Source of the DNA: Candidatus Woesebacteria bacterium GW2011_GWF1_31_35
Lineage (GTDB): Bacteria; Patescibacteriota; Microgenomatia; UBA8517
Direction of reading: 5' to 3'
NCBI GenBank assembly: GCA_001029755.1
Contig: CP011214.1
Location: 1,754-65,753, forward strand
DNA length: 64,000 nt
Positions 9,938 to 64,000 of this stretch are shown here, one piece after another. Positions within the stretch are counted from its first letter, which is position 1; the number at the start of each line of letters is the position of its first letter. The notes under the pieces were generated by a model that saw only the letters and a list, made by a program, of their open reading frames with translations, was not told the origin of the DNA and did not search any database. Position numbers and translations under genes: made by a program.

Positions 9938-10515
9938 ATAACTCTTCCTATTATAAATAACATATACAAAACCGCCAATATTAAATATTTTCGATTTACA
10001 GATTTAGAAGCAATGTTAATATATATTAATAAAACAGGAAGAAGGAAGGCTAAATTTCTTTTACCAAGTAAAAATGTAAATAAAGATATTCCCAGTGTCC
10101 AAAAAATAAGTTTAAAGTTTCTATTTTTTATTAAGCTTATTAAACCCAAAACCCAAAATGGGAAAAGTATTCCTGCTATTGGTTCTACGCCAGAAGGTGA
10201 AAATCTAGTTCCATCTCCTGCCTGGAAATAAGGTCTAGGTGAGGTGTAACTTAAAAATGAGAAAAAGTTATCAAGCATTACATAGACTTTGTTATAATAA
10301 ATTTTTGATAATAAGTCTTCTTTTTCATTTCCAAAAGCATTCCACCTAACTTCTTGGATTTTCATAAGATTATCACTAGAAAAAATCGAACTAATATTTT
10401 TTTTGAAATATGAAGGTGCCATTTTCCATTCGAGTACTATACTTTTTAAATTAAATAAATTCCACCAAAATCCTGCTGTCAATATTATTAGTAATAGTGT
10501 TTTTTTATTCTTCAT
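9922..10515 (-). CDS. Short (197 aa) membrane ORF resembling only the central region of the GT39 paralogs; truncated paralog or possible pseudogene remnant
   Basis: The stretch ...SPRPYFQAGDGTRFSPSGVEPIAGILFPFWVLGLISLIKNRNFKL aligns by eye with YFSPSFLILDGPAETTYGMVKGFGVLSYIEIFGLFFLIINFKKFK of the paralog at 10528..11979. It lacks both the N-terminal DE-motif region and the C-terminal soluble domain. Confidence 0.4.
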   Translation of the reverse strand: MKNKKTLLLIILTAGFWWNLFNLKSIVLEWKMAPSYFKKNISSIFSSDNLMKIQEVRWNAFGNEKEDLLSKIYYNKVYVMLDNFFSFLSYTSPRPYFQAGDGTRFSPSGVEPIAGILFPFWVLGLISLIKNRNFKLIFWTLGISLFTFLLGKRNLAFLLPVLLIYINIASKSVNRKYLILAVLYMLFIIGRVIWLKN

Positions 10516-10527
10516 TTTTAAAAAAAA

Positions 10528-11979
10528 TTACTTGAATACGAACTTTCCAAGTTTATATTTTGGCATTTGATCCACCCAATTAACTCCAATTTCTTCAAAC
10601 TTCCAAAGTTTAGTTTCCTCTTGATAGAACTTGGGGTCAATCTTTCCTGCAAATGCAATATAAATATGAGGCTCTGAAAGTGTTTTAGAAACTATTATCT
10701 CATCAAATTTATCAGAATTATTAGTTATCTCAACTGCTTTTTCTAAATTACCTGAAAGCATACCGTCGGCTGATTTAGTTGGACTTTCAATTAAATATTT
10801 TTGAAAAAAGACAATAAAACCAAATAGAACAACTAGACCTAATAAGTATTTGACATTTTTGTTACTTTCTATTAATTTATAAATCCCTAACCCTGCTAAA
10901 ATTTGTAAAACAGGAATCATTGATATTGCTCGATTAGCAGCATAGCCTACTCCTGTTGATAAACTTGCTGGAAGTGGTGAAATTAAAAGCCATAATATTA
11001 AAAAATAAATAATTTTTTTGTCTTTAAATTTTTTAAAATTAATAATTAAAAAAAATAATCCAAATATTTCAATATAAGATAAAACTCCAAAACCTTTAAC
11101 CATTCCATAAGTTGTTTCGGCTGGACCATCTAAAATCAAAAAACTAGGAGAAAAGTATTGAAGATAATTATTTATAAATCTACTTATAACGACTTGGTAT
11201 TTATTATGAAGTAACTTTGCTAGAGTTGGGTTCATTCCATTTTGAATTAAAACAATTTTTGCCTTAGCACCATCTTCTAATGCACCACTGGTAATACTTC
11301 TTTCCGCGACTCTTGCACCAGCTCCTAGATTAAAGGTATAAATTGTTAATATTACAAACAATCCAAAAACTAATAGTGGTTTAAGTATTTTTTTAGATAA
11401 ATTGTTTTTAAAAAATACTAATAACAAAATTATTATTAAAGGTGTAATTAACTTGGCTGAATGATAAGTAAACATATTTACACCAAAGACAGTCATGGAT
11501 AAATAGTATTTTTCTACTAAAAATAAATAAATTCCCAAAGGAAGAAATAGTGTAATTAAATTGGCTTCAAACGCTCCTCTACTCATCATAATATGCCAAG
11601 GACTAATAGTTAGTAAAAACGCAATTAAAATACCATATTTTTTATCGGAAAAAAGTTTATTTGAAAGTAAGTACAAAACATAAACAGCTAAGGTACCAAT
11701 TAAAGCATTTGGAAGCCTTACTGCAAACTTAGTTAATCCAAATATAAAAACAGAAGGAATTGTTAAATAAGCATAAATAGGTGCTTTATAATCTCCAAAG
11801 GATTTTAGAACTAAAGGAAATGCATTCCCCCATTGGTCTTTACCTGTTTTTAAAATTGAATAAGCATCATATCCAAAAGAGGCTTCATCAGGCGTAAATC
11901 CTACTGGATATTTATCAAGTGCTACAACACGAAGAAGAAAAGATAAAGCTAAAATGAGAGGTAATATCCACTTTTTCAT
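10528..11979 (-). CDS. GT39/PMT/ArnT-like GT-C membrane glycosyltransferase (paralog 5)
   Basis: It carries TPDEASFGYDAYSILKTGKDQWGNAFPLVLKSFGDYKAPIYAY, and its C-terminus has SEPHIYIAFAGKIDPKFYQ. Confidence 0.8.
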   Translation of the reverse strand: MKKWILPLILALSFLLRVVALDKYPVGFTPDEASFGYDAYSILKTGKDQWGNAFPLVLKSFGDYKAPIYAYLTIPSVFIFGLTKFAVRLPNALIGTLAVYVLYLLSNKLFSDKKYGILIAFLLTISPWHIMMSRGAFEANLITLFLPLGIYLFLVEKYYLSMTVFGVNMFTYHSAKLITPLIIILLLVFFKNNLSKKILKPLLVFGLFVILTIYTFNLGAGARVAERSITSGALEDGAKAKIVLIQNGMNPTLAKLLHNKYQVVISRFINNYLQYFSPSFLILDGPAETTYGMVKGFGVLSYIEIFGLFFLIINFKKFKDKKIIYFLILWLLISPLPASLSTGVGYAANRAISMIPVLQILAGLGIYKLIESNKNVKYLLGLVVLFGFIVFFQKYLIESPTKSADGMLSGNLEKAVEITNNSDKFDEIIVSKTLSEPHIYIAFAGKIDPKFYQEETKLWKFEEIGVNWVDQMPKYKLGKFVFK

Positions 11980-40857: not shown

Positions 40858-42018
40858 GTGCAGAAGAAAATTTTAAAGATAACTATTTTAATATTATTAA
40901 CCATAATTCCTACTTTTTTGATCTGGATTCCATTTTTTGCCAGAGTTAAGTCTTTTTGGACTATTCCACTTCCCCAACAAGGAATGGCTACAATTGTCTC
41001 TAACTTTGATGGTCCACTTTATCTTATAATAGCCAAGACTTTTTATAACCCAGATTTAATTGGAGCAAATTATCAATTTCCACTATCAAATGAATACTAT
41101 TCAGCCCATTTTCCACTTTTTCCAATTTTTATTAAAACTTTTGCAATTTTTTTGGGACACCCCTATTCAATGCTTTTTGTAACCTTAATCTCCTCATTTT
41201 TAGCATTGTTTTTCTTCAACAAACATGCAAGAAAATTATTAGATAAAAATAATGCCATGTGGTTAACCTTTATTTTTGCGATTTTTCCTGCAAGATGGTT
41301 AATAGTAAGGTCGGTTGGTTCTCCTGAACCATTTTTCATTGCAGCAATCCTGGCTTCTACATATTTTTTTGGAAAGAAAAAATATATTTGGGCTGGAATT
41401 TGGGGAGCTTTAGCTCAAATGACCAAATCCCCTGGAATACTTTTATTTTTAGCTTACCTTATTCAAATTTCAATCCCGCATTTTAAAGAATTAGCCACAG
41501 GTGGAATAAAAAAATTTATATTAAAGCTGGATCTTAAAAATACCTATCCAATATTTTTTATACCACTAGGCCTTTTGGTTGTGTTTACAATTTATGGATT
41601 TACCTATGGCGATTTTTTCACCTATTTTAAATCAGGGGATAATATTCATCTTTTCTTCCCACCTTTTCAGATTTTTAATTTTTCAGCTCCTTGGGTAGGA
41701 ACTTTTTGGCTTGAAGAAATAATATTTATCTACACGATAGGAGTTTTAGGAGTTTATAAACTTTATCAAGAAAAATTATTTAATTATTTTTACTTTTCAT
41801 TAATATTTTTTATATCTTTACTATTCGTAGCTCACAGAGATTTATTAAGATATGCCCTTCCATTAATCCCTTTTTTAATTTTAGCCTTTAGAGAAACATT
41901 AATTAAAAAGGAATTTAAGATCGCTATGGCTGTTATTATAATTCCAATTTATCTTTATTCACTTGCTTTCATATCCCAAAATGCTATGCCAATTGCAAAT
42001 TGGGCTCCATTCCTATAA
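40858..42018 (+). CDS. Polytopic membrane protein (GT-C-like), GTG start; the only large plus-strand gene inside the glycosylation locus
   Basis: It is 386 aa with about 11 TM helices, and is divergent from 40098..40817. Confidence 0.4.
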   Translation: MQKKILKITILILLTIIPTFLIWIPFFARVKSFWTIPLPQQGMATIVSNFDGPLYLIIAKTFYNPDLIGANYQFPLSNEYYSAHFPLFPIFIKTFAIFLGHPYSMLFVTLISSFLALFFFNKHARKLLDKNNAMWLTFIFAIFPARWLIVRSVGSPEPFFIAAILASTYFFGKKKYIWAGIWGALAQMTKSPGILLFLAYLIQISIPHFKELATGGIKKFILKLDLKNTYPIFFIPLGLLVVFTIYGFTYGDFFTYFKSGDNIHLFFPPFQIFNFSAPWVGTFWLEEIIFIYTIGVLGVYKLYQEKLFNYFYFSLIFFISLLFVAHRDLLRYALPLIPFLILAFRETLIKKEFKIAMAVIIIPIYLYSLAFISQNAMPIANWAPFL

Positions 42019-44288: not shown

Positions 44289-44939
44289 ATGTTAAAAATC
44301 GATATAATTACACTTTTTTCAAAAATGTTTGTTGGTCCATTAAATGAATCAATTATGTGGAGAGCGCAAGATAAAAAATTTATTGAGTTAAACATAGTTG
44401 ACCTAAGACAATTTGGAATAACAGAAAGAAAAACTGTAGACAATAGACCATATGGGGGTGGTGCTGGAATGATTTTAAGAATTGATGTAATTGATAATTG
44501 TCTTAAATCAATTAAGGCAAAACCAAAAACTAAAGATACCAAAATTGTTCTTTTAGATGCTGGGGGAGAAAAGTTTACCCAAAAGAAAGCTTATGAATAT
44601 TCTAGTTTAAAAAGACTGATTTTAATTTGTGGCCATTATGAAGGAATTGATCACAGGGTTCATGAAAATTTAGTAGACGAAATAATATCAATTGGAGATT
44701 ATGTTTTAACAGGTGGGGAAATTCCTGCTATGGTTGTTGCAGATACAGTAACAAGATTGGTTCCTGGAGTTATTAAAGAAAAATCTTTGAAAGAAGAATC
44801 TTTTTCAGATTCTTTAGAAGAAGTGACTGAATACCCCCAATATACTAGACCAGAAATATATAAAAACTTAAAAGTACCGAGTGTTCTATTAACTGGAAAT
44901 CATAAAAAAATTGATAAATGGAGAAAAATAAAGAAATAA
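44289..44939 (+). CDS. trmD: tRNA (guanine37-N1)-methyltransferase
   Basis: It carries IDIITLFSKMFVGPL...DNRPYGGGAGMIL...LICGHYEGIDHRV...SIGDYVLTGGE, canonical TrmD motifs. Confidence 0.9.
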   Translation: MLKIDIITLFSKMFVGPLNESIMWRAQDKKFIELNIVDLRQFGITERKTVDNRPYGGGAGMILRIDVIDNCLKSIKAKPKTKDTKIVLLDAGGEKFTQKKAYEYSSLKRLILICGHYEGIDHRVHENLVDEIISIGDYVLTGGEIPAMVVADTVTRLVPGVIKEKSLKEESFSDSLEEVTEYPQYTRPEIYKNLKVPSVLLTGNHKKIDKWRKIKK

Positions 44940-51120: not shown

Positions 51121-52080
51121 TTATAATATTTTACCTGCTTTTAAGATTAAAATAATTGCCATAATCATACCTAAAAATGATACATGAGCAAAACTTCTGC
51201 CTGCAATTCTAGCAATACCTTTTTTTGATACAAAAAAACTATCAACCAAAAATACCACCACCAAAAGTCCCACAACACTTAAAGATATTGCCCTAGTTGT
51301 TGCAAATGGAGATATTATAAATTGTTGTATTTTTGATGTAGTAAAAATAGCCTCAACAGTAGAAACAGGTGAAGCTATTGCAATAATCGGAATTGGAGAA
51401 CTAGTTGGAGAAATAGTCGCAGCAATAGTAGGCTTTATTGTTGGTTTAATAGTTGGATTATCATTTATAGGATTGTTGGCAGCTACAGGCTGGGCAATAT
51501 TATCAACATAGGTTGATCCAAAAAATTGAACTATTATAGTTGTATCAACTCCAGCTAAATCTCCTTCAACTACCCCAATCCCAATTTCTTTGTATTTTGA
51601 ATTTAAAATATTTTCCCTATGAGTTGGGGAATTCATCCAAGCATCAACTGCAGAAGAAGCACTACTAAAGTCTCTTGCTAAATTTTCACCAGCGTATCTA
51701 TATCTATAACCAGCACTTGTAAAAAAACTCCAAGGCTGTGTTCCATCTGGAGCTATATGTGCCCAATAATCCTTTATAATCATATCATTTCCCTTAGATT
51801 GGGCAGCTACAGAAAGTGTTCCATTTAATGTTAATGAAGGTAAGCCTGCTTGGGCTCTTTTTTCGTTTGTAAGCCTTATAATTTCATCAGGTGAGATCTG
51901 GGAGGCATATCCTAAGATAGATGGACCCAATTTAGGTATAAAATTTAAAACAGCTTGGAAAAGAATAAAAAATGAGGCTAAAACTAATAAACCACTTGGA
52001 TGTAAAATTTTAGCCTTGTGGTTATTACTTGCTCGAGGCAAAAATAAATGAAGTGTTTTTTCTATAAAATCCATACACAT
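51121..52080 (-). CDS. CAP/SCP/PR-1 domain protein with Pro/Thr-rich linker (PTIKPTIKPTI) and C-terminal TM anchor
   Basis: It carries ...AAQSKGNDMIIKDYWAHIAPDGTQPWSFFTSAGYRYRYAGENLARDFSS...WMNSPTHRENIL. Confidence 0.65.
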   Translation of the reverse strand: MCMDFIEKTLHLFLPRASNNHKAKILHPSGLLVLASFFILFQAVLNFIPKLGPSILGYASQISPDEIIRLTNEKRAQAGLPSLTLNGTLSVAAQSKGNDMIIKDYWAHIAPDGTQPWSFFTSAGYRYRYAGENLARDFSSASSAVDAWMNSPTHRENILNSKYKEIGIGVVEGDLAGVDTTIIVQFFGSTYVDNIAQPVAANNPINDNPTIKPTIKPTIAATISPTSSPIPIIAIASPVSTVEAIFTTSKIQQFIISPFATTRAISLSVVGLLVVVFLVDSFFVSKKGIARIAGRSFAHVSFLGMIMAIILILKAGKIL

Positions 52081-52129: not shown

Positions 52130-53509
52130 TTAGTTATTTTCAAACAAAATTGTTGGAGATGGTTCAGGACTTGGAGACGGACTTAGTGTCGGTGTTGGAA
52201 AAACTTCTGGAATAGGCGTAGGTGATGGACTTGAACTTGATTCAGATTCTACAGTTTGTGTAGAAAAAGAAGAAATTAAATCTTCTTCTGAAAGATTTGT
52301 ATATCCTGGTGTTCCATAATTATTTCCTTCAATATCCCAATATTTAGTACTATTGCAAGCAATATTTGTACAGGTATGCCATCCAGATGATAGATCACTA
52401 TTTCTTTCCATAGACTGTTCGACAGTTGCCGGCGAAGTATGTGTACCAGCAACCCATGACCCCATAGGGGTTTGGTCAATAATATTACCTGAAGCATCCT
52501 TAAGTATTAATTGCTCCCCAGGACTTTTAGTCAAATGTAGACTACTATCAATTTGATCTACTACCAATGAATGACTCAACGCAGATTTATCATCTATTGA
52601 TGCATAATGACTTAGAAGAAAATAACCATTAGCTTCAATCTTTCCATTTAAAATTATTTCGTTAGGGCCAGGACCTGCACCATAAAGTTTCCAGCCCGTT
52701 ATATCAATAACTTCATTAGTAGTATTTCTTAGTTCTATCCATTTATCTAATTCATGTACAGTTGAACCCATCCACATTATTTCATTAATAACAACACTCC
52801 CTATAACATCAGGTGTTGACCAATTACTAGTCGCTGAAAAAGTACTACCCCCAATTACAGCCACATCAGAAAAATAAGCATTTATAGGTTTGATTTGAAA
52901 AAGACCGAATCCTAATAAAAAGTAAATAAGTAACAAATCAATGGGTTTGTTTTTATGCAATTTTTCAGATTCTTCATATTTTTTTTCTACTTCTTTTTCA
53001 ATTGTCTTTTTAATATTTAATAATTCACTAATAATAATGAGAAGGGCAGGTAAAACCACCAAAAGACCAAAACCTAAAGGTTTTTTTATCCAAACAGATA
53101 AATAACCTAAAAAGGGTAAGGAAAAAATAACTTTACCTTTTATTTGAAATGAAGAAATTTCAGCAATATCTTCAATACTATTAGCATCCCCTTTTGTTTT
53201 AAAGACAGTCTCACCATTCTTCTTTTCAACTGCTACCAATCGGTGAGTAATTGATACGTTTGGATCTTCTGCTGAAATATATGTAATAATCTCTCCTTTT
53301 TTTAAAATTTCAGGATCAACTTTTTGAGTAAAAACTACTGAACCTACTTTGATTGCAGGTTCCATCGAACCGGACATGACTCTTAAAACTTGAAAGCTCT
53401 TAATTGGGTTAAAAGCAGTAAAAACCAACAATAAAACTATCGAAATCAAAACAACAGTTAATAACCATTGAAAAATATTAATTATTTTTTTTAATATATT
53501 TTTAAGCAT
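52130..53509 (-). CDS. sipW: SipW-type (archaeal/eukaryotic-type S26) signal peptidase I fused to a C-terminal lamin-tail domain (LTD) and Pro/Ser-rich tail
   Basis: The N-terminus has a TM helix then ...LRVMSGSMEPAIKVGSVVF...ITHRLVAV...GDAN (SipW/Sec11-like Ser/His). The C-terminus has VVINEIMWMGSTVHELDKWIELRNTTNEVIDITGWKLYG (LTD pattern), then SPSPTPIPEVFPTPTLSPSPSPEPSP. Confidence 0.7.
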   Translation of the reverse strand: MLKNILKKIINIFQWLLTVVLISIVLLLVFTAFNPIKSFQVLRVMSGSMEPAIKVGSVVFTQKVDPEILKKGEIITYISAEDPNVSITHRLVAVEKKNGETVFKTKGDANSIEDIAEISSFQIKGKVIFSLPFLGYLSVWIKKPLGFGLLVVLPALLIIISELLNIKKTIEKEVEKKYEESEKLHKNKPIDLLLIYFLLGFGLFQIKPINAYFSDVAVIGGSTFSATSNWSTPDVIGSVVINEIMWMGSTVHELDKWIELRNTTNEVIDITGWKLYGAGPGPNEIILNGKIEANGYFLLSHYASIDDKSALSHSLVVDQIDSSLHLTKSPGEQLILKDASGNIIDQTPMGSWVAGTHTSPATVEQSMERNSDLSSGWHTCTNIACNSTKYWDIEGNNYGTPGYTNLSEEDLISSFSTQTVESESSSSPSPTPIPEVFPTPTLSPSPSPEPSPTILFENN

Positions 53510-53591: not shown

Positions 53592-54227
53592 TTAAGGTGT
53601 TTGTACAAGGCCAAATACCGCATTCATGGTAACACTATCTCCTTGTATACTATTCCCTGCAGTAGTAGGAATTGACCACTCAATTTTAACACTGGCTGTT
53701 GTATTCATTTCCCCAACACTTTCACCAATCATTGGACCAAGTGTATAAGGACCATTGAATTGATCAACAGTACCATTTAAACCAGTATCTACAAAAAAAC
53801 CATTATGATCACCATCATAATAAACACGGAAATTTAAAACTCCAGCAAGATCACTCCAACCAGAAGTTCTATTTAAATCAATTGTTGCATTGCCATTAAT
53901 AGTACCATCATTCGCAATGTCTATTATTTGTACTCTAGTATCACCTGGTTTTAAATTATTTAGACCTGCCTGAGCCATAAAGTTATCATAACCTATCCCA
54001 ATTGTTGTATCCAAATAAGTTCTATAATCAGTACTAGAAATATCAAATCCATCAACCCAATTATAAGTGGCTGATCTTGGATCTTGATCTATCTTAAGAT
54101 CCATAGTTCCAGAAGAGAAAGTGGTTCCAAGAATTGACGCTGTATCACTAAAATAAGCAACTGTAGCAGTTGTTACTCCAGCGATAACCAAAGCAATCAT
54201 TGTTAGACTTAATAATATTTTTTTCAT
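53592..54227 (-). CDS. Secreted TasA/camelysin-like protein with SipW-cognate-class signal peptide
   Basis: The N-terminus MKKILLSLTMIALVIAGVTTATVAYFSDTASILGTTFSSGTMDLKI matches the SipW-cognate signal pattern (..GATGAYFSDTE...NTF.AGTLDL). A strong SD (AAGGAGGTGA) lies upstream. It is adjacent to sipW. Confidence 0.65.
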   Translation of the reverse strand: MKKILLSLTMIALVIAGVTTATVAYFSDTASILGTTFSSGTMDLKIDQDPRSATYNWVDGFDISSTDYRTYLDTTIGIGYDNFMAQAGLNNLKPGDTRVQIIDIANDGTINGNATIDLNRTSGWSDLAGVLNFRVYYDGDHNGFFVDTGLNGTVDQFNGPYTLGPMIGESVGEMNTTASVKIEWSIPTTAGNSIQGDSVTMNAVFGLVQTP

Positions 54228-54440: not shown

Positions 54441-54965
54441 TTATTGTAATCTATATGAAATAAATTGTCTGGGTTCACCAAACATTTGAACAATTACAGT
54501 ACGTGTCTGACCATTTACTACTCCAGTTGCTAAAGCTATTCCAGTTTCTTTGTAACGATTAGAAAGAAGGTTTTGTTTATGAGTAGGTGATGCTAACCAC
54601 GCACCTATTAAAGATCCAGTATCACCATAATCTCTCCCTAAATTTTCTCCAGCTAATCTACCTCTATATCCTGTTGCTAATATAAATTTCCAAGGAGTAG
54701 CCCCAGTTGTTGGATTATTATGAGCCCAATAACCATAGGAAATTAAATCTTGTGCTTTTCGTTGTGCAGCTAAAGTTAATAAATTATTTTTCTTTAAAGC
54801 TAATTGTCCATTTTGGATACGTGTCTGATTTACTTCATTATAAACATTTTCAACAGAAAGACCTGAAGCCTTTACTAAATTGGGTATAGCTAAAAATACA
54901 AATGCAAAAATAAAAATAGCACTTGAGATAATTATGCTTTTAAAAAAGTTATTCTTGTTCATCAA
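54441..54965 (-). CDS. CAP/SCP/PR-1 domain secreted protein
   Basis: It carries ...AAQRKAQDLISYGYWAHNNPTTGATPWKFILATGYRGRLAGENLGRDYGD...WLASPTHKQNLL. It has an N-terminal signal/TM. Confidence 0.65.
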   Translation of the reverse strand: MMNKNNFFKSIIISSAIFIFAFVFLAIPNLVKASGLSVENVYNEVNQTRIQNGQLALKKNNLLTLAAQRKAQDLISYGYWAHNNPTTGATPWKFILATGYRGRLAGENLGRDYGDTGSLIGAWLASPTHKQNLLSNRYKETGIALATGVVNGQTRTVIVQMFGEPRQFISYRLQ

Positions 54966-54970
54966 TGTAA

Positions 54971-55036
54971 GTGTGAAGATTAGTGAAGTAGCTTGCGTGA
55001 TGAGATAACTGACAAAAATATGTCAAAAAATGCAAA
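54971..55036. repeat. Copy 1 of a roughly 65-bp direct repeat carrying GTGAAGAT...TTGCGTGAT...AACTGACAAAAATATGTCAAAAAATG (TGACA-N6-TGTCA palindrome)
   Basis: It aligns by eye at roughly 75% identity with copy 2 (about 55189..55263). It lies in the 5' region of the CAP gene 54441..54965. Confidence 0.4.
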
Positions 55037-55188: not shown

Positions 55189-55263
55189 TTGTGAAGATAA
55201 TTAAAATAGGTTGCGTGATAAACAAACTGACAAAAAATAGTCAAAATTGACAAAAAATGATAC
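55189..55263. repeat. Copy 2 of the roughly 65-bp direct repeat (…TTGCGTGATAAACAAACTGACAAAAAATAGTCAAAATTGACAAAAAATG), containing a TTGACA -35-like hexamer; immediately upstream of the plus-strand regulator gene
   Basis: See copy 1. Confidence 0.4.
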
Positions 55264-55276
55264 CATATGCTCCTAA

Positions 55277-56476
55277 ATGTCAAAACTTGAAAAATTAGTA
55301 GTCACCAAACAATATCTTGATGCCGAAAATAAGTGGGGACAAATACTTAATAATGGAGAAAGTCTTTCAATCCTATTTCCCCCTGTTTCAGATTGCCAAC
55401 GTAGAATTAGCCAATTTATTAGTGAACACAACAATGAATTTCTATTCTCAGAAGTAAACCCCCTTGATCTAGCTACTGAAGAATTAATTGACCTTGAAGC
55501 AAGTTTACTGATTCAAGCTAGGTTATTGTCTGAATTTAAAAAATTCCAAAGTTTTGAATCTTTAATTCATCATTTAGATAAAAACAAACGGCATTTAATA
55601 ATAACCTGTCCACTAGCTGATTTTTTGTTTACTCAAAAAGGCAAACAATATCTATCTTTAATTCAAAAAATTATTTTTCAATATACACCAACTCTTACTT
55701 GTTTTTTAGCATTTGAGACTGACATTATTCACCCTGATAATGCTGAATTGGTACGTAATTACCACATGCTTTTTCAACATATTGGTTATTACCCACTTTA
55801 CTCATCTACTGATACATCCACCTTTATTAATTATCTATGTCTAAAATGGGAAATTAAAATAAAAACAAAGGTTAAACAAGAAATTATTGAAAAATGTGGT
55901 GGATATTTTTGGTTAGTAAAAGAGGCTTTAAGACAAATTCGTGATAATGGTTCTTGGGAGATAAACTCAGAATCTTTCCAATATCGTTTGCAAACAATCG
56001 CCCAATCTTTAAAAGAGAGTGAATATATAACTATCGCCAAAATCTTAAGTAAAAGCCGTGGATTTGATGATGTTCAATTACACAGCAGAAAATATCTACA
56101 AAAGATAGGATTATTAGATAATAAATTCAATTTAACTGTCCCACTTTTAAAAGATACAATAATTAAGCTTGGAGCAAGTAAAAGAAAACTTATACTTATC
56201 AAAAATGAAATCTTTTTAAACCAAGTGCCTGTTAGTAATTTCTTTTCTCGAAAGGAATTCCGCATTATTAAATTACTTTTATCTCGCGAAGGAGAAACTG
56301 TCACTCGTGACGAAATTGCAGATGTAATTTGGTTAATGGATGTTAAGGAAAAATATTCAGAATGGGCAATTGATCAATTAGTTAAAAGATTACGAAATCG
56401 TTTGTCAGAACTTTTAATACCAAAAACAGTATTACGTTCTGTTCGTGGAAAAGGATATTGCTATGTTCAATCATGA
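55277..56476 (+). CDS. Transcriptional regulator with C-terminal OmpR/PhoB-type winged-helix DNA-binding domain and a roughly 300 aa N-terminal domain of unknown (possibly degenerate P-loop-like) fold
   Basis: The C-terminus FSRKEFRIIKLLLSREGETVTRDEIADVIW...AIDQLVKRLRNRL...VRGKGYCY is a trans_reg_C signature. The N-terminal region has no receiver-domain residues and no Walker A motif. Confidence 0.6.
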   Translation: MSKLEKLVVTKQYLDAENKWGQILNNGESLSILFPPVSDCQRRISQFISEHNNEFLFSEVNPLDLATEELIDLEASLLIQARLLSEFKKFQSFESLIHHLDKNKRHLIITCPLADFLFTQKGKQYLSLIQKIIFQYTPTLTCFLAFETDIIHPDNAELVRNYHMLFQHIGYYPLYSSTDTSTFINYLCLKWEIKIKTKVKQEIIEKCGGYFWLVKEALRQIRDNGSWEINSESFQYRLQTIAQSLKESEYITIAKILSKSRGFDDVQLHSRKYLQKIGLLDNKFNLTVPLLKDTIIKLGASKRKLILIKNEIFLNQVPVSNFFSRKEFRIIKLLLSREGETVTRDEIADVIWLMDVKEKYSEWAIDQLVKRLRNRLSELLIPKTVLRSVRGKGYCYVQS

Positions 56477-58457
56477 AATAGAAATAAATATTGACCAAAA
56501 TAAAGAATCGCAAAATGATAGGGGTAATCTTTTTTCTTTATTAAAAAGAAATATATTAATAAATACAATTAAAGAAAACCCTGGCAGTTGTAATTTACCA
56601 GAAGTCGTCGAAAACATATTAAAAGAAACTCTAATTTTTCCCCAAACTGAAAAGGTAGAATTAACAGGAAGTTTGGCCAGATTTGCGATTGGATTTGGTT
56701 CAATGGAAAGACACAATCAAGGAAAAGATGGTGCGAGTAAATTACTAAGAGAGGTTAATATTTCAACAAATAAAAATAATTTTGAAAACAATCCATGGAA
56801 AAACATTATTACTGATCTTTCTGAAAGTGATTTGGATATGGATACTTGTTTTTATTTTAGACCAGGTTATTCATTATTGGATTTATATAATTCATTGGAA
56901 GAAAAACACAAAGATTCTAACAATTTAAAGGTAGAAAAAACAGATATTATTAGCACTTTTTCATTTAATCTAATGGATAACTTTCAACTAGCCATTACTC
57001 ATGAACCAATTATCACTAACCCTGGACTTAATAAATTAACTATTGATATATCTTACAAACCAGTAAATGAAGATTATAAACAAATCATGCATATTGATGT
57101 TAGTGAATCCCCGATAGATGCAGAAAAAGCAAGAAGACAAAAAAGACATGGTGGCAGAACTACAAAATCGCAAGATAGAGGTCGTCTAACATTAAAAATA
57201 GAAAATAAAAAAATAATTTATGAGGTAACAAATGAAGCTAAAATGGCACTTAAGGGGAGAGAGAGAATTAGTACTTCTGGAAAAAATATGAAAGATATTT
57301 TTGAATTATCACTGCGTTCCTTGCGAATAAGATTAATTCATACACCTGATGATCTTTCTATTAAAATAAATCATCTTTTCCCACTTTTCGATTCTAAAAG
57401 TTTATTTTCAATTAGAAAAAATGTTCAAGAATATGTATCAACAAATAATAACAAGTTGACTACAAAAGAAATGTCTCTTCCTTTAAAAGACTTAATTTTA
57501 TGTTTTAACTACGATCCATATATCACATTACATTTCTTGCAAGATAGTAATTTTTATTTATTATTTCCAGGACTAAATAATATTACTTCCAAGGGTTGGC
57601 GTAATTTATATTTGAGCGATTGGTTAAATCTAACAACCGTTGATGGTAATTTTTTAGAACCTGACAAAAGATCGTTAAATAGTTTAGTTAAAGATCAAGA
57701 TGAATATAGTAAGAGAAATTTATCCAATGGATTCATTTCAATACTACACGCAATTAGTGAATTAAAATATCCTAAAAAAGAATTTGATTTAATGAATTCT
57801 TTTAATTACTTTGATACATCAAAGATAGTTGAATTTAATCAAGAAAGAATAAAATCAAATAAACCTACTAAAGCTATTTCTTACCTTTTAAATTTCTTTA
57901 ATGGTGGTCTAACTGAAATAGAAATTCAAAGACTTTATAATTTATATTCAGATAAAAAAATTGAGACTGAAGAATTTAGAAAAGTATTGCGTGAACTTAA
58001 ATTGGAATCAAAAATAGATAAACAATTACGTACAGTAAACATCCAAGGAAGAAAAAGATCAGTAATCTTATATGGTTTAAGAACTGTAAAATCACAAAAC
58101 CCGTTACAATTAGATAATTTAATAGATAAAACTAGTGAAGTTACAAAGCATCCATGTTTAGATCGTGCTAATGAATACTTGATTAAAAACTTTAAAAATT
58201 TAGAATTTAATGATAAAACCATAACTTTAAAAAGTATTCATAACTTTCTAAAAAGTAATGGAGTATTAACCTTAGAAGCGCTTAGATCATTTTCTTACAA
58301 AGATTTTTCAGATTTTTATAATAAATATAATAACGAAGAAAAAAATAAATTAAATCAAGGAAACTTTCAGATTTATTGCAGAGGCCTTCAAATTATTTCT
58401 GAAGATGTTTTAAGATATCCACTATTTTCAAATTATTTACGTTTAGATAAAAAATAG
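56445..58457 (+). CDS. Large hypothetical protein (670 aa), translationally coupled to the upstream regulator
   Basis: It overlaps the regulator by 32 bp. It is soluble and K/N-rich. GS...SDLDMD segments are at best a weak nucleotidyltransferase-like hint. No family was recognised. Confidence 0.45.
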   Translation: MEKDIAMFNHEIEINIDQNKESQNDRGNLFSLLKRNILINTIKENPGSCNLPEVVENILKETLIFPQTEKVELTGSLARFAIGFGSMERHNQGKDGASKLLREVNISTNKNNFENNPWKNIITDLSESDLDMDTCFYFRPGYSLLDLYNSLEEKHKDSNNLKVEKTDIISTFSFNLMDNFQLAITHEPIITNPGLNKLTIDISYKPVNEDYKQIMHIDVSESPIDAEKARRQKRHGGRTTKSQDRGRLTLKIENKKIIYEVTNEAKMALKGRERISTSGKNMKDIFELSLRSLRIRLIHTPDDLSIKINHLFPLFDSKSLFSIRKNVQEYVSTNNNKLTTKEMSLPLKDLILCFNYDPYITLHFLQDSNFYLLFPGLNNITSKGWRNLYLSDWLNLTTVDGNFLEPDKRSLNSLVKDQDEYSKRNLSNGFISILHAISELKYPKKEFDLMNSFNYFDTSKIVEFNQERIKSNKPTKAISYLLNFFNGGLTEIEIQRLYNLYSDKKIETEEFRKVLRELKLESKIDKQLRTVNIQGRKRSVILYGLRTVKSQNPLQLDNLIDKTSEVTKHPCLDRANEYLIKNFKNLEFNDKTITLKSIHNFLKSNGVLTLEALRSFSYKDFSDFYNKYNNEEKNKLNQGNFQIYCRGLQIISEDVLRYPLFSNYLRLDKK

Positions 58458-59347
58458 AAATAAAGAACTGGGAGAACAATTATTAGAGTAATAATTCCAA
58501 GTGTTATTTTAGTTCTATCCTTCGCAAATTTAACTACCTTTCCAATAATTCCATTGGGAGTTTCTGTTGCAGATGGATTATTAATAGTTTCAAGATTTGC
58601 TTCCTCACCCAACACCTGTCCAGTACCTTCTTTAGGAAGTACTGTAACCTTACCAGATCCATTTTGAGATGGAACAGGTGTTATAACTGTAACAGTTGTA
58701 CTTCCATCCCCTACTAAACTTGATGAATTATCTGCTTTATCTAAAGCTCTTAATGCATAAAAGTAAGTTTTGTTAAAATCTGGTGTATGTTCATCATAGG
58801 TCATATCAGAATTTGAAGATCCTGATATTCTAGCAATTTCATGTTGGTTATCTGCTGAAAAGTCTACAGTCTCTCCTCTATAAATAACTACTTTTGAAAA
58901 ATCAGTGTCATTAGGATTTATCCAATGAATTTTAAAATCATCACTATCAATTGTATCTTTATAATAACCAGTTACAGGTGATGGTCCTGAAATATCATAG
59001 AAAGAACTTGTTTCATCTGTAGCACCAGAAATTTCTACTTTAAAATAGTATTTTGTTTGATCACTAACTTGTGAACTTGTAACTTCAACTTGGCCAGAAG
59101 CTCCATTTATAATTGGACCTAATGTTACATAACTTCCACCCTCTTTTCTGTAATAAAACTGAGCTGAAATACTTGTTGGATCACTAGTTACTGCAGAATA
59201 TGAAAGTTTAAAATTATTTGTATTAAAGTAACTTGGAAGTTTACTTATTGAAACCTCAGGTGTTATTTCTGCAACAGCTGGTCTAACCAAAAGTCCTAGA
59301 CCTAATAATAAAGAGATTAAAAATGTTATAACTTTACTTTTTTGCAT
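58433..59347 (-). CDS. Secreted, C-terminally membrane-anchored protein with two Fn3-like beta-sandwich domains
   Basis: It has the signal peptide MQKSKVITFLISLLLGLGLLVRPAVA, Fn3-like segments (...FKIHWINPNDTDFSKVVIYRGETVDF...), and a C-terminal TM helix plus KRK. Confidence 0.5.
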   Translation of the reverse strand: MQKSKVITFLISLLLGLGLLVRPAVAEITPEVSISKLPSYFNTNNFKLSYSAVTSDPTSISAQFYYRKEGGSYVTLGPIINGASGQVEVTSSQVSDQTKYYFKVEISGATDETSSFYDISGPSPVTGYYKDTIDSDDFKIHWINPNDTDFSKVVIYRGETVDFSADNQHEIARISGSSNSDMTYDEHTPDFNKTYFYALRALDKADNSSSLVGDGSTTVTVITPVPSQNGSGKVTVLPKEGTGQVLGEEANLETINNPSATETPNGIIGKVVKFAKDRTKITLGIITLIIVLPVLYFYFLSKRK

Positions 59348-62300
59348 ATTTTCTATTTATATAAATCCCTATACCCAACATTGTAAGTGCCATTATAATC
59401 CATAGAGTATCACTTCCTGTATCGGGTAATTCTATAGAAGCTCCTAAAACTTGTCCCAATAGATTTCCACCATAACCTATTCCTGTTCCTATAACTACAC
59501 TTGAATTAGCTACATTACATTCAATAGTTTCTAAACTTTCTTCTCTTTCTTCTGACCCAATTGTTCCTTTACAAGTTGCAAAGTTTTTATATGATGATCC
59601 TTGAAATACACTTGATAACACTTTTGCTTTGTAGGTAATTTTAATTTCCTGACCACTTATTATGTCTCCAATACTCCATTTCAAAACGCCTGAGGTTATT
59701 GTCGGATCTGAGGTTGACACATCATTTATTAAGCTAGATCCTGAAACATATTCAAAACCACCAGGTAAAATATCAATTACTTCCAAGTTATTAATTGTTA
59801 CATTACCAGTATTTTTAACTTTTAAAGTATAAATTACTTCATCGCCAATTCTTGCTCCAAATAATTTATCATTACTTTTTTCAATCTTAACCTCTTTTGA
59901 TGGTACAAATCCAAAATCTGCTGCATCAAAGTTTGCCCCAGAGACAACTGCAATTGGACCATATGGATCGGTTGTAGTTGGTGCATATCCTGTAGGTACT
60001 GTTAAATCAACAACATCAACCCAATAATTACCTGGTAAAAGATTGGTAAATAGATATATACCTGATCCATCCGTTGTAGTTGATCCTACTAATATATCAG
60101 CCTCACCTAAATCTTGAATTCCATCACCATTATCTAAATAAAGATCAGTCTGAACTCCAGAAATTCCAGGTTCTCCAACATCTTGAATTCCATTACCATT
60201 ATAATCAGTCCAAACAAAGTCTCCAATTTCTGCAAGTTTGAAATTACCAAAATTTTGCACTACATTGTTATTATTTTGAGGTACATTAACAAAGTGACAA
60301 TTAGGATCTGTTGGATATGTTTGTGTCCAACCTGTCTTTAATTCCTCACAAACTTTATATGTAGCTGGGAATAGATGATTAAACCAATACCATCCTAAAT
60401 CAGAGCCAATAGTTGTGTCAGTTGTGGTTGTTTTTACTAACTTTGTATAATCGTTTGTCCCATTATCCCAACCATATAAATTAATAGCCCAATTACCAAG
60501 TGGATTGTCATCAATATTTTCAATTCCATTTCCATCTTTATCTTCCCATTTATATCCGTGAATTGAACCATTTGGAGTATTTATAAATGTACAAATTATA
60601 GTTTCACCTTCTCCTAGAATTATTCCATTTACACTATCTAAATTATCATATGTACCTTTAAAAGTTTCTCCTAATTTACAATAAGCGGTAACTAAATCGT
60701 ATCCATCTTGTTTAGATTCAATTGCCAAATATTCTCCAGTTTTAATATCATCAGTTATATTTTCTCCATTCAAATCAGTTGTAAGTGGAGATGGATCTTC
60801 TGTGTCAGTACTGTTTCCATTTATATCAATAACCCAACCAACACCCGGTGTTTGATCTGAAGTAGTAGTAATATAACCATCTTCATCAATAATTTTCTTT
60901 ACTTCAATTTTTCCTAAATCTCTCGTATTTGTAACTGTACAAGTTTTATTTTCTCCCAAAGCTATGGATCCATCGCAATCATCTGAGAATGATGATGTAT
61001 ATCCTGTGACAACATCCTCGGAAACAATATAACTTCCTACATCCAAAGAAGCTGTTGTTCCAGCTGAAGATCCTGGGAAAGAATCCTCACTTACATTGTC
61101 TCCATCTATATACATTGTAAAGTCGCCAGATACTTTTGCACTACTTCCTACAACATTTTTGACAACTGTTAAATGTGGAGTTTTGTCATCATTATGAATT
61201 GTACAAGTAACATTTTCTCCTTCATCTAGTGTTAAACTTCCACCTAATACACTAGGACACTTACTATCACCTGTAATATTTACAAAATTATATCCTTCCA
61301 AAACTGTCTCATTTAGAGAGATTGAAGTATTAGCATCAACTGTAGTTGTGGATCCTGAAAGTACCAAATTTCCTCCAACCATTAAACTAAAATCATCTGG
61401 ATTTGCGTCCCCACCATTGTCATTTGTTACATCTTTAATAAGTGTAATTGTTGGGGCTATATCATTATTAGTTATCGTGCATGTTGCAGTTCCACCATTT
61501 GGAATAACTACATCAGTACAGTTATTATATCCGGTTGAATATCCTGAAACTGATGGCTCAACTACTGAATATGTTCCGGCATTAACATTTAAATCATTCT
61601 GACCGTCAGATTCAAATGCAACAGCTGTTCCACCATTTACTTTAAATGTAAAATTACCATATGTTTCATTTCCACCATTATCTTTTACGAGAACTTTTTT
61701 AACAATTAAGGTAGCTGATTGATCATCATTTGTAATAGTACAAGTTACATTACTATTAGCAGAAAGGGTTAAATTATCATTTACTAAATTTCCACCAGTA
61801 CATGACCAAGAACTTGCAGAATATCCAACTGGACCTGATTCTGAAAGAGAATATTGTTTATTTGCTAAAATTTTACCAGTAATTGAAGGTCCATTTCCTT
61901 GAACTTTTAATGAGTTAGAATCATATATTGCAGAGAGTTCCCAATCAGAAGGTTCTTTGGTTCCACCACTATTATTGTTTACAACTTTTTCTAAAGTTAA
62001 AGTTGCTGTGTCAATTGCATTACAAAGAGTAATGTTAGTATCAACATCTTTATTTACTGTGACTGTTACGGGAAGCGTAATTCCTTCAGGAGTATTACAA
62101 GAATATCCTGTACTCCCTGTAGTAAACCATCCAACAAAATGATAATCAGAAACATCATCATTCTCGGTAACAGTGTGGGTTACTCCAGTTATAGTAGTTT
62201 CAATGCCACTTACAGTAGAGCCCATGCTATACGCTTGACTTGTGTCAACTTTAAAAGAAAAACCTAAAGTATTAGCTTGACTATTACCACCTTCAAATGT

Positions 62301-64000
62301 GTTGTCTCCATCACTATCAACTTTTTTATTAACTGTTACACTTCCAGTATCTCGAGTATTTGTAAATGTACAAGTTCCACCACTTTCTGTAACATCTAAA
62401 GAAGCAGTTGAACCTACAAATGTAGGACAAACTCCACCAGTTGAAGTTAATGTGTATCCTAATACAGAACTTGTTTCCTCAACTGTATATGATCCTGTAT
62501 TAAGTAAGGCACTATCTTCATCATGTAAACCACCTTGAACAAGATTTGTTATATTTTTGAAAATTGTAAATGTCCAATCAGAATCATTTGCAGTGCCTCC
62601 AATAAATATTTTATCAAAGAAAATATTCCCTGTTTTTCGAGTATTGTAGATTGTACAAGTAACATTATCTCCTGCAGAAAGATTTACTTCTCCATTAGCA
62701 CAATTTGAAGAATATGATATGTTGTAATCAGAAAGGCTTGTATCAGTTCCGGCAGTTTCACTAACTTGATATTGACCGGCGTTTAATATTAATGATCCTG
62801 TTGTACCTCCATCACCAACATTGGAAGCATAAACAGTAGATCCTATTAGAAGATTGAATTTACCAGGATCATTTGATGGAGTTAAATCTTTTATCACAGT
62901 TAATTTTGGATATTTAAAATTATTGAATGTACAAGTTACTGTTTCTCCCAAAGAAAGTGAAATATTATTAATAGAACTACCATCATTACAGGTTGCTGAT
63001 GTTAAATCCCAACCAGTGAGTTCATCTTCAACCAATGAATAATTCCCCGCTGAGAGTGGGCCACTATCATATGGTGTATCTAAATCATTTAATTGAAATG
63101 AATCAACTAAATTAGTAGATTTTGAGAGTGTAAAATCAAATTTTTGAGGATCTTCCAAAGGATTTGTCACTTTATCTACAATTATTTTTCCTGGAATATC
63201 ATCATTTGTAATAGTACAAATAATATCTTGTCCAGGATTTAAAGTAACTGTTCCACCAAGACTAGTTGGGCAACCAGTTCCTGCAATAGAAGTGAAAGAA
63301 TAACCAGCAAGTCCTGCCTCATTAATAGCATATTCCTTATTTGCATCAACTGAATACTTTTGTCCAGAATTTGCAGCTACCCCACCAATAGTTAGACCAA
63401 AATCATTAACTCCTGCAGTTCCACCATTATCTTTAATTACATTTTTAATTAAAGTAATAGTTGGGGCAATATCATCATTTGTAATAGTGCATGATTTAGT
63501 ATCTCCTAATCCAAGAGTGATTGATCCATTAGAAGCACAATTACCACTAATTGTCCCTGTATATCCTTCCTGATCTGTTTCAGAAATAATATAGGTACCT
63601 ACATTAAATCCATTTTCAATTCCACTTATTACACCAGTGTTATCAACAAAAAGTGGGAAATCACTAATTTCTTTGTTTCCACCATTGTCATTAACAACAA
63701 CTTTTATAACCGTCAATTTTGGTTGAATGTCGTTATTTGTAATAGTACAAGTTGTTATTTGATCAGTAACCACAGTAACATTTGTACAATTATCATAAGT
63801 AGTTGCATAACCAGAAACACCCGGTTCAATCACACTATAAGTTCCAGGAACAACTGTTAAATCATTTGTTCCACCTGTTTCAAATGCAATTAAACTTCCT
63901 CCATTTACTTGGAATGAAAAATCAGAGGCAACTTTTGTACCCCCGTTATTATTATTAACCACTTTAGTAACTCTAAGTGTTCCTTGACTATGTTTATTGT
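59334..64000 (-). CDS. Giant LPXTG-anchored surface protein (>1540 aa; N-terminus outside the window) built from more than 12 repeated roughly 100 aa prealbumin/SpaA-like two-Cys domains plus a DUF11-type domain
   Basis: The C-terminus ...ELPDTGSDTLWIIMALTMLGIGIYINRKYAKK is an LPXTG motif plus TM plus basic tail. The repeats carry K-rich first strands (TLIKNVIKDNGG / TVIKVVVNDNGG) and C-x15-20-CTITNDD ends. Near the C-terminus VKIEKSNDKLFGARIGDEVIYTLKVKNTGNVTINNLEVIDILPGGFEYV is DUF11-like. The ORF is open to the window end. Confidence 0.75.
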   Translation of the reverse strand, partial: NKHSQGTLRVTKVVNNNNGGTKVASDFSFQVNGGSLIAFETGGTNDLTVVPGTYSVIEPGVSGYATTYDNCTNVTVVTDQITTCTITNNDIQPKLTVIKVVVNDNGGNKEISDFPLFVDNTGVISGIENGFNVGTYIISETDQEGYTGTISGNCASNGSITLGLGDTKSCTITNDDIAPTITLIKNVIKDNGGTAGVNDFGLTIGGVAANSGQKYSVDANKEYAINEAGLAGYSFTSIAGTGCPTSLGGTVTLNPGQDIICTITNDDIPGKIIVDKVTNPLEDPQKFDFTLSKSTNLVDSFQLNDLDTPYDSGPLSAGNYSLVEDELTGWDLTSATCNDGSSINNISLSLGETVTCTFNNFKYPKLTVIKDLTPSNDPGKFNLLIGSTVYASNVGDGGTTGSLILNAGQYQVSETAGTDTSLSDYNISYSSNCANGEVNLSAGDNVTCTIYNTRKTGNIFFDKIFIGGTANDSDWTFTIFKNITNLVQGGLHDEDSALLNTGSYTVEETSSVLGYTLTSTGGVCPTFVGSTASLDVTESGGTCTFTNTRDTGSVTVNKKVDSDGDNTFEGGNSQANTLGFSFKVDTSQAYSMGSTVSGIETTITGVTHTVTENDDVSDYHFVGWFTTGSTGYSCNTPEGITLPVTVTVNKDVDTNITLCNAIDTATLTLEKVVNNNSGGTKEPSDWELSAIYDSNSLKVQGNGPSITGKILANKQYSLSESGPVGYSASSWSCTGGNLVNDNLTLSANSNVTCTITNDDQSATLIVKKVLVKDNGGNETYGNFTFKVNGGTAVAFESDGQNDLNVNAGTYSVVEPSVSGYSTGYNNCTDVVIPNGGTATCTITNNDIAPTITLIKDVTNDNGGDANPDDFSLMVGGNLVLSGSTTTVDANTSISLNETVLEGYNFVNITGDSKCPSVLGGSLTLDEGENVTCTIHNDDKTPHLTVVKNVVGSSAKVSGDFTMYIDGDNVSEDSFPGSSAGTTASLDVGSYIVSEDVVTGYTSSFSDDCDGSIALGENKTCTVTNTRDLGKIEVKKIIDEDGYITTTSDQTPGVGWVIDINGNSTDTEDPSPLTTDLNGENITDDIKTGEYLAIESKQDGYDLVTAYCKLGETFKGTYDNLDSVNGIILGEGETIICTFINTPNGSIHGYKWEDKDGNGIENIDDNPLGNWAINLYGWDNGTNDYTKLVKTTTTDTTIGSDLGWYWFNHLFPATYKVCEELKTGWTQTYPTDPNCHFVNVPQNNNNVVQNFGNFKLAEIGDFVWTDYNGNGIQDVGEPGISGVQTDLYLDNGDGIQDLGEADILVGSTTTDGSGIYLFTNLLPGNYWVDVVDLTVPTGYAPTTTDPYGPIAVVSGANFDAADFGFVPSKEVKIEKSNDKLFGARIGDEVIYTLKVKNTGNVTINNLEVIDILPGGFEYVSGSSLINDVSTSDPTITSGVLKWSIGDIISGQEIKITYKAKVLSSVFQGSSYKNFATCKGTIGSEEREESLETIECNVANSSVVIGTGIGYGGNLLGQVLGASIELPDTGSDTLWIIMALTMLGIGIYINRKYAKK

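Follow-up and report, generated by a model that had tools for sequence, protein, structure and literature searches.

Transcription activators of the MalT/LAL type carry an N-terminal AAA+/STAND oligomerisation module, built of a nucleotide-binding domain, a lid and a winged helix, which is followed by a C-terminal DNA-binding domain. Ligands set their activity, as do partner proteins docking on the nucleotide-binding oligomerisation domain (NOD). OmpR/PhoB response regulators carry a winged helix-turn-helix (wHTH) effector domain at the carboxyl terminus and are coded in operons with a larger partner gene, that of the histidine kinase, downstream. To our knowledge, bacteria of the Candidate Phyla Radiation (CPR, Patescibacteria) have very few recognisable signalling or regulatory systems and almost none of them is characterised. 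The module described here lies in a 64,000-nucleotide stretch (the window; G+C content ~29%) of contig CP011214.1 from Candidatus Woesebacteria bacterium GW2011_GWF1_31_35. It is formed by a regulator gene (gene 1) and a downstream gene coding a larger partner protein (gene 2), and is preceded by a conserved candidate operator. The amino terminus of the regulator follows the MalT layout, while its carboxyl terminus and the gene order recall OmpR/PhoB systems. We put about even trust in the reading that this is an autoregulated, CPR-specific regulator-plus-partner module in which gene 2 codes a signal-input enzyme or a co-regulator.

The regulator gene and the predicted domains of its product, whose boundaries are approximate, were defined by Pfam, an AlphaFold2 model, Foldseek against PDB and family alignments:

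55277–56476 (+), regulator gene, open reading frame (ORF) of 399 amino acids (aa) with an ATG start
Regulator aa 1–176, AAA+/STAND-like nucleotide-binding fold with a degenerate Walker A, FPPVSDCQRR, at aa 34–43
Regulator aa 177–230, helical lid with KCGGYFWL
Regulator aa 232–300, winged helix
Regulator aa 303–399 (nucleotides 56183–56473), OmpR/PhoB wHTH

The carboxyl terminus matches Pfam Trans_reg_C (PF00486) at aa 324–395 with 46.2 bits, above the cut-off of 26.2 (E=5e-12), which bears out the OmpR/PhoB-type DNA-binding domain that had been recognised there in the first-pass annotation. Among PDB sequences it is similar to PcoR (2.3e-06), SaeR and OmpR. NCBIfam response-regulator models (aa ~305–397) and PDB chains of the OmpR family match this part of the protein only, which has four strands, three helices and a hairpin in the model. 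The N-terminal ~300 residues gave no receiver, BTAD, AAA, AAA_16, NACHT or NB-ARC match in Pfam, and no Response_reg match in Pfam or NCBIfam. The AlphaFold2 model, computed from an 11-sequence alignment, reached a predicted local distance difference test (pLDDT) score of 89.1 and a predicted template modelling (TM) score of 0.78. Foldseek found 218 PDB matches to it at E<=1e-3 that span 320–460 aligned columns. The top ones are ORC4, Cdc6, archaeal Orc1/Orc2, DnaA, RFC subunits, RuvB, PAB2304, SSO1545 and MalT (8bob), the best E-values being ~1e-6 to 1e-7 (ORC4, 3.3e-07). Superposition on PAB2304 (2qen, a PF01637-type ATPase) gave TM scores of 0.48/0.53 and a root mean square deviation of 6.8 Å. 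From these matches, the N-terminal 300 residues are an AAA+ initiator/STAND-like module with nucleotide-binding domain, helical lid and winged helix.

The Walker A signature GK[ST] is found in none of the 14 aligned regulator relatives, the nearest sequence being PGTGRTS in locus L012. Other remnants in distant relatives are a Walker B FDE in L011 and lids reading GGHPYML and GGYPRLV, as compared to KCGGYFWL in the window; these lids appear to resemble the GGxP lid motif of STAND proteins. The Walker B position of the window regulator, located by alignment and secondary structure only, holds a single aspartate (LIITCPLAD113FLF). Because the Walker A is degenerate family-wide and such remnants persist in distant relatives, the domain appears to be descended from a P-loop NTPase and to be now a pseudo-ATPase. 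Examination of this domain for a nucleotide-binding fold thus agrees with the first-pass suggestion of a degenerate P-loop-like sensor fold. The same annotation had set the protein apart from response regulators, SARPs and CadC, in line with the null receiver and BTAD searches, the AAA+-like N-domain and the C-terminal position of the DNA-binding domain. Gene 1 would then code a one-component-style transcription factor in which an ORC/Cdc6/STAND-like AAA+ module, and not a phospho-receiver, drives the OmpR/PhoB winged helix. As the Walker A Lys/Thr are lost, it would probably switch by a ligand- or partner-induced conformational change or by oligomerisation, and not by ATP hydrolysis or phosphorylation.

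The prominence of ORC4, Cdc6, Orc1 and DnaA among the fold matches, together with weak Foldseek matches of gene 2 to DNA polymerases lambda, beta and mu, could also fit a remnant replication module of an integrated element, composed of an ORC/Cdc6-like initiator and a Pol-beta-like polymerase. We give this hardly any credence: the Walker A is dead in all members, the DNA-binding domain is of the OmpR transcription factor type, the polymerase X matches are non-significant, no integrase or element boundaries were found, viral and plasmid collections gave no match, and chromosomal synteny is conserved.

Features at the junction between the two genes are:

56450–56455 (+), Shine-Dalgarno-like AAAGGA within the 3' end of the regulator gene, 7 nt upstream of ATG 56463
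56463–58457 (+), partner gene, 664 aa from its probable start ATG 56463, or 670 aa from GTG 56445

The listed ORF of gene 2 (56445–58457, +) has 670 aa if it starts at the GTG. In three of its six homologues the protein begins at the equivalent of Met7 (MYNHEIE). Given these N-termini and the AAAGGA 7 nt upstream, ATG 56463 is the probable start, and the two genes would overlap by 14 nt. The 32-nt overlap reported before requires the GTG start, so the overlap itself stands but its shorter form is likelier. It is also of 14 nt in L001. In the remaining loci the genes overlap by up to 11 nt or are separated by up to 5 nt. The Shine-Dalgarno sequence inside gene 1 and the overlap suggest that translation of gene 2 is coupled to that of gene 1. 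Both genes are real, and their products are conserved in other metagenomes: protein searches returned 10 homologues of gene 1 (33–95% identity) and six of gene 2 (43–93% identity), one of the latter labelled 'MAG: Candidatus Woesebacteria', and the close homologues of the window proteins carry the Candidatus Woesebacteria label. It had been stated that no other substantial plus-strand genes exist in the right half of the window, but trmD (44289–44939, +, E=2.4e-52) and a 386-aa PMT_2-like ORF (40858–42018, +) are also present there.

Every distinct reachable gene-2 locus was examined (window, L001–L008, L036/L037, L038/L039 and L040). In 12 of 12, gene 2 is immediately preceded by a same-strand gene for a Trans_reg_C regulator of 377–440 aa, which overlaps it or ends at most 5 nt before it; L039, where the contig end cuts the upstream gene, was left out of this count. 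The pairing persists when gene-2 identity to the window protein drops to ~20–23% and in differing wider contexts, for example beside GGDEF and Crp-type genes in L036. Co-occurrence, proposed earlier as a check on the pair, is thus found throughout, and neither protein belongs to a housekeeping family. All named members are Woesebacteria and the pair is so far found only in uncultured CPR bacteria. When 1.84 billion representative proteins were searched exhaustively with a gene-2 hidden Markov model, no more than 61 clusters reached E<=1e-3, the majority with lengths of 600–820 aa, and GTDB genomes scanned with gene-2 patterns returned nothing. Relatives of the pair are absent from IMG/VR viral contigs and PLSDB plasmids, and PADLOC and PHROGs are likewise negative; a defence, phage or plasmid origin was rejected on these four results. 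The 304-aa gene downstream (58433–59347) was considered as a conserved third member and rejected, as the gene in the corresponding position of L038 shows no homology to it. Literature searches gave no description of this architecture or of the pair.

In L008 (2582–11424) the pair sits between rplK-rplA and rplJ-rplL, within an otherwise universally conserved ribosomal protein cluster.

The region upstream of the regulator gene contains the following features:

54441–54965 (−), gene of a CAP/SCP-domain secreted or membrane-anchored protein (Pfam CAP, E=3e-10), divergent from the regulator
54993–55025 (+), candidate operator copy 1, TTGCGTGAT-N..-ACTGAC-N8-GTCA, ~30 bp from the CAP start codon
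55063–55158 (−), putative gene of a small hydrophobic protein of 31 aa, MIYFALVTVGYILGVFAALAIIPSKPNMLGE, between the operator copies
55211–55266 (+), candidate operator copy 2 with the regulator promoter; TTGCGTGAT at 55211–55219, ACTGAC at 55226–55231, GTCA at 55240–55243
55238–55266 (+), putative regulator promoter; −35 TAGTCA at 55238–55243, 17-nt spacer, −10 TACCAT at 55261–55266, with ATG 55277 10 nt further on

A conserved element precedes the regulators, TGCTTGAY-N8-(C)TGAC-N8-GTCA, followed by a 17-nt spacer, TAnAAT, 10–11 nt and the ATG. In 10 aligned upstream regions the TGA, TGAC and GTCA columns are invariant and the −10 is conserved. The core site, TGAY-N8-TGAC-N8-GTCA, covers 28 bp with its three tetramers spaced by 12 bp, and its right arm (TTGTCA; TAGTCA in the window) doubles as the −35 hexamer. 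Gene 1 would accordingly be transcribed from a sigma-70-type promoter located 10–11 nt before the ATG, its −35 embedded in the tripartite site. Since the −10 ends 10 nt before ATG 55277, the regulator mRNA is predicted to be near-leaderless. A search with the expression TGAY.{6,9}TGAC.{8}GTCA, with shuffled sequence as control, found 15 copies against ~0.6 per shuffle, in every distinct pair locus except the truncated L039. All are on the strand of the regulator and immediately precede either its gene or the adjacent CAP or small-peptide genes, and only two unrelated matches occur in 488 kb. The 28-bp spacing is fixed in all copies but one overlapping minus-strand match in the palindrome of L008. 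In the 64-kb window the element is found only at 54998–55025 and 55216–55243, both in the CAP-regulator intergenic region. There the operator region is duplicated by a 57-nt direct repeat (54972–55028 and 55190–55246, 79% identical), whose first copy keeps the operator part and not the −10. L001 and L003 share the duplication, which the more distant loci lack. Upstream CTGAC repeats persist even at distant regulators that have other partners, with three direct CTGACTAAA in L011 and a similar site in L012. The recognition helix SEWAIDQ is invariant throughout the extended regulator family. Because this helix and the TGAC element are co-conserved, the element is most likely bound by the regulator, which would thereby control its own expression.

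In nine of the 12 loci (window, L001–L007, L036/37) a CAP-domain gene lies divergently to the regulator, and its position suggests that it is also under operator control. No convincing sigma-70 promoter was identified for it on the minus strand. The small ORF may code a small membrane protein that is co-regulated with the CAP gene. From the tripartite site the regulator would repress its own operon or adjust its expression, and would also govern the divergent CAP gene, together with the small membrane peptide gene where present.

A similar 32-aa hydrophobic ORF, MINFAFLTLGYFSGAFVAIFFLIPKTAKKTLS, is found between the operator copies of L003 (708–806, −); the two peptides are alike (MIYFALVTVGYILGVFAALAIIPSK... 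in the window and MINFAFLTLGYFSGAFVAIFFLIPK... in L003). A different hydrophobic peptide is coded at the same place in L001 (~1866–1975, −). In the distant loci L038 (194–418, −) and L040 (4438–4575, −) a small protein takes the place of the CAP protein opposite the regulator, and both share the C-terminal motif DTI(F/I)VNG(K/Q)..(I/L)FP.

It had been proposed that the pair, lying between secretion and adhesin genes, could control surface structures, namely the adjoining SpaA-type LPxTG adhesin, sortase and SipW/TasA-like genes. In the window, L001 and L003 the pair indeed has CAP/TasA/SipW-like genes on one side and, on the other, those of a giant SpaA-domain adhesin and a sortase. This neighbourhood is however confined to close relatives and is lost in L002, L004, L006, L007, L008, L036 and L040, the conserved linkage being that to CAP. 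The operator is restricted to the CAP-regulator intergenic region, without a further copy in the window, and the adhesin operon is convergent, not divergent. Control of the surface apparatus is hence improbable, although it is compatible with our preferred reading of an autoregulated module.

The partner protein displays the following conserved features (residue numbers follow the 670-aa ORF):

56634–57110 (+), nucleotidyltransferase-like motif set hG[GS] ... DxD ... hDh, placed by column counts and secondary structure
Partner N-terminal alpha/beta region, G75-S76, D131-x-D133 and H216-I-D218
Partner basic/acidic cluster, K233-R234, Q243-D244 and E287-x3-R291-x2-R294
Partner conserved motif D357-P358...D367
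Partner aa 474–546 (about), wHTH with conserved G488, L489, T490, K519 and Y543
Partner aa 557–660, C-terminal helical domain

Column counts over 53 sequences are 40 for G75 (with serine in 11 more), 38 for S76, 53 for D131, 52 for D133 and 44 for D218. Those of the basic and glutamate positions are 53 for R234, 53 for R291, 51 for R294 and 48 for E287. Such family-wide conservation points to a catalytic centre. The first-pass annotation could assign the protein to no family, and this was also our experience: gene 2 has no match in Pfam, NCBIfam, PADLOC, PHROGs or PDB sequences, its family profile has none in PDB, and Foldseek with the AlphaFold2 model gave no significant match. The 53 aligned members matched no enzyme family in Pfam, only scattered weak winged-helix models, and HisKA and HATPase_c are absent from the window protein and from all 53. 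In the model (pLDDT 68.6), aa ~30–220 and 470–660 are confident and aa 280–460 poor. The predicted product of gene 2 is a cytoplasmic protein of several domains, which combines an invariant Asp/Arg/Glu constellation with a winged helix of its own.

This winged helix leads to a doubtful but serious alternative, in which gene 2 is non-enzymatic and acts as a DNA-binding or anti-activator co-regulator, as MalY, MalK and Aes do on MalT. Its winged helix would either bind the operator at the palindromic half or serve as a docking surface for the regulator. The domain is conserved, its local Foldseek matches include TFIIE-alpha (probability 1.0) and PadR, and family members have weak Pfam matches to TFIIE_alpha, TrmB and CvfB_WH. 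Further, the operator inverted repeat CTGAC-N8-GTCAG is typical of dimeric wHTH proteins and no enzyme fold is detectable in gene 2. Yet the N-terminal alpha/beta region groups the invariant residues, which are Asp, Arg and Glu, in the pattern of a catalytic centre rather than of a docking surface, and a conserved part of 450 aa outside the winged helix would be left to explain.

If the partner is an enzyme, its motifs direct attention to nucleotidyltransferases. The model has a helix at aa 51–63, a strand at 68–74, a helix at 75–82, a two-helix insertion and a strand at 130–138, so that the family-wide hG[GS], DxD and hDh follow each other on a predicted strand-helix-strand, in an order that resembles the signature of the Pol-beta superfamily, to which minimal nucleotidyltransferases, Pol X, CD-NTases and class II CCA/poly(A) polymerases belong. 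In a greedy hhalign alignment, not significant, D131/D133 fall opposite Pol beta D190/D192, and H-I-D218 opposite R-I-D256. By eye, E287-x3-R291-x2-R294 and [DN]P...LRD[SC]G...hP also resemble motif D and the body region of class II CCA enzymes. At 660 aa with a wHTH and a helical tail, the protein is however unlike any described nucleotidyltransferase, and its motifs are parted by a 55-aa insertion. Because hhalign and hmmsearch gave probabilities below 1% or shuffle-level scores, as detailed below, the nucleotidyltransferase assignment is a motif-level hypothesis only. The first-pass caution over the GS...SDLDMD segments was justified: the motif is conserved in the whole family, yet no profile or fold test supports membership.

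In the reading that we prefer, the pseudo-ATPase NOD would gate assembly of the OmpR domains on a three-site operator that overlaps the regulator's own −35 and abuts the CAP gene. Gene 2 would provide the signal-input partner, whose target would be the pseudo-ATPase domain. We see it in the first place as an enzyme for the synthesis or transfer of a nucleotide-derived group and, only if this fails, as a co-regulator devoid of catalysis. A bolder version, which we hold to be rather unlikely, sees here an undescribed type of signalling that replaces two-component logic in Woesebacteria. In it a divergent nucleotidyltransferase-like partner acts on the dead ATPase pocket, where a nucleotide-derived ligand or covalent nucleotidylation would switch assembly of the regulator on the operator phased by 12 bp, with the secreted CAP-domain protein as output. 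Sister regulators paired with NUDIX hydrolases in Saccharibacteria would represent an 'eraser' version of the same logic.

Several observations weigh against our preferred reading. The gene-2 model is only moderate and derives from a 7-sequence alignment. Foldseek with this model against PDB and BFVD found nothing below E=0.02, the scores for CdnB (0.28) and for Pol lambda, beta and mu (0.4–0.6) being non-significant. The spacing from G[GS] to DxD is ~55 aa as compared to 9–15 aa typical of the nucleotidyltransferase superfamily. Nucleotidyltransferase Pfam models have no match among family members, and hhalign of the 53-sequence family with KNTase, Pol beta, OAS1, DncV and PcnB gave probabilities below 1% for each (the reference sequence of the E. 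coli CCA enzyme was verified as 100% identical). Identity with class II CCA enzymes/poly(A) polymerases, an idea that arose from the E-x3-R-x2-R and LRDxG...P motifs, was rejected on chance-level hhalign and hmmsearch scores. The sub-profile of aa 280–380 scored 4.3 bits with the E. coli CCA enzyme, within the range of 1000 shuffles (top shuffle 7.0), and gave no score with PcnB. On the side of the operator, part of its conservation could reflect promoter function alone because the right arm is the −35 hexamer, and CAP linkage is missing in L008, L038 and L040.

The operon logic also resembles that of AbiE, a toxin-antitoxin/abortive-infection module in which a wHTH autorepressor is followed by a nucleotidyltransferase toxin and autoregulation acts through promoter repeats. 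The pair is bicistronic, with a gene for a probably autoregulating DNA-binding protein, an overlapping second gene with nucleotidyltransferase motifs and a repeat-containing candidate operator over the promoter. An AbiE-like identity is nevertheless highly improbable. No homology was detected: the pair has no PADLOC or PHROG match, and the DUF1814/AbiEii Pfam model matches 0 of 53 members. The window proteins are two to three times larger than AbiEi and AbiEii, and the family is extremely rare (61 clusters in 1.84e9 proteins) and absent from plasmid and viral collections. Conservation of CAP synteny and promoter over deep divergence, with a copy between rplA and rplJ, argues for vertical chromosomal inheritance, not carriage on mobile elements.

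The regulator family extends beyond the loci coding a gene-2 homologue. A scan of GTDB with regulator patterns found only distant regulators, from Roizmanbacteria, CPR3, Saccharibacteria and bins labelled Eisenbacteria or Gammaproteobacteria. The partners in L009, L010 and L013 are weakly related proteins of 640–650 aa (E 1e-5 to 1e-10) in other orientations, that of L010 aligning to the gene-2 family with an hhalign probability of 58%, while the 622-aa partner of L012 is not detectably related to gene 2. In the Saccharibacteria loci L014 (6048–6716, +) and L015 (6849–7319, +), a NUDIX hydrolase gene follows the distant regulator, overlapping or abutting it, in place of the 660-aa partner; the L014 hydrolase carries an NrtR-type winged helix and that of L015 does not. 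Recurrence of nucleotide-handling partners is suggestive, in few loci. In L009, paralogous regulators (5968–7224, + and 10261–11484, +) flank a single distant gene-2-like ORF (8271–10220, −). The bin label of this locus, 'uncultured Gammaproteobacteria', is doubtful because its relatives are CPR-like.

The window codes a number of surface and glycosyltransferase proteins. Upstream of the pair, adjoining minus-strand genes (52130–53509, 53592–54227 and 51121–52080) code an S26 signal peptidase of SipW-like appearance with a fused Lamin-Tail Domain, a probably TasA-like protein with a match to the camelysin family (Peptidase_M73) in its signal-peptide region, and a second CAP-domain protein. The group has the look of a cassette for TasA-type fibre secretion, here in a CPR bacterium. 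Downstream lie the 304-aa membrane-anchored protein gene (58433–59347, −), which is convergent with gene 2 and shares 25 nt with it at the 3' end, and that of the 1542-aa adhesin (59334–63962, −), which precedes it. The adhesin has eight SpaA_2 repeats with SdrD_B and DUF11 domains and ends in LPDTGS and a transmembrane segment, a sortase-type sorting signal. In L001 and L003 a sortase gene follows the adhesin; the SpaA/sortase neighbourhood is seen in these two loci and the window only. A very long tandem array of genes for proteins of 400–600 aa occupies ~2000–40100 (−), and the gene at 40858–42018 (+) is grouped with it. At least seven of 10 array genes sampled are PMT/PMT_2 (GT-C, ArnT-like) membrane glycosyltransferase paralogues, an expansion unusually large for a small CPR genome. 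In L036, PMT_2 and Acyl_transf_3 genes adjoin the module.

The domain types of the regulator are known, but a dead STAND/ORC-like NOD joined to a C-terminal OmpR wHTH, with an obligate partner and a conserved operator, is undescribed in the libraries and literature searched. The module thus provides a transcription factor family of unusual architecture, pseudo-ATPase NOD then OmpR wHTH, together with an obligatory partner with no detectable relatives that may represent a new enzyme family. Its candidate operator and promoter are precisely conserved. The anatomy of the module is well defined, its phyletic range is narrow and its mechanism is inferred. Should a nucleotide be the means by which the partner controls the regulator, the system would show reuse of the AAA+/STAND nucleotide pocket as a ligand sensor and offer an entry point to gene regulation in uncultured episymbiotic bacteria. 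If it does not, the pair is a well-delimited lineage-specific regulator with a local regulon, of value for annotation and of narrow interest.

Comparison with known systems places the regulator between several families. ORC/Cdc6, DnaA and the PF01637-type ATPases PAB2304 and SSO1545 share the AAA+ base, the lid and the winged helix carboxyl-terminal to them, and are its best full-length structural matches. They are active ATPases with canonical Walker A, whereas the P-loop of the regulator reads FPPVSDCQRR and an OmpR-type wHTH is added to the fold; in addition, the regulator is coded in a transcription unit with a candidate operator, not at an origin. SARP/AfsR proteins also combine an OmpR-type wHTH and a STAND-class NTPase in a single polypeptide, but in the order wHTH, BTAD, NB-ARC and TPR. 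The order is reversed in the regulator, which has no BTAD match and a degenerate NTPase. MalT has a LuxR-type DNA-binding domain where the regulator has one of the OmpR/PhoB type. It is ~900 aa long as compared to 399 aa, and the regulator is devoid of a sensor repeat domain, the Walker A Lys/Thr being gone in every member of its family. OmpR/PhoB response regulators possess the receiver domain and phospho-acceptor Asp that the regulator lacks, and the partner coded by gene 2 has none of the HisKA, HATPase_c or transmembrane segments of the kinases paired with them. Functionally, gene 2 would nonetheless stand where the histidine kinase stands for a classical OmpR regulator.

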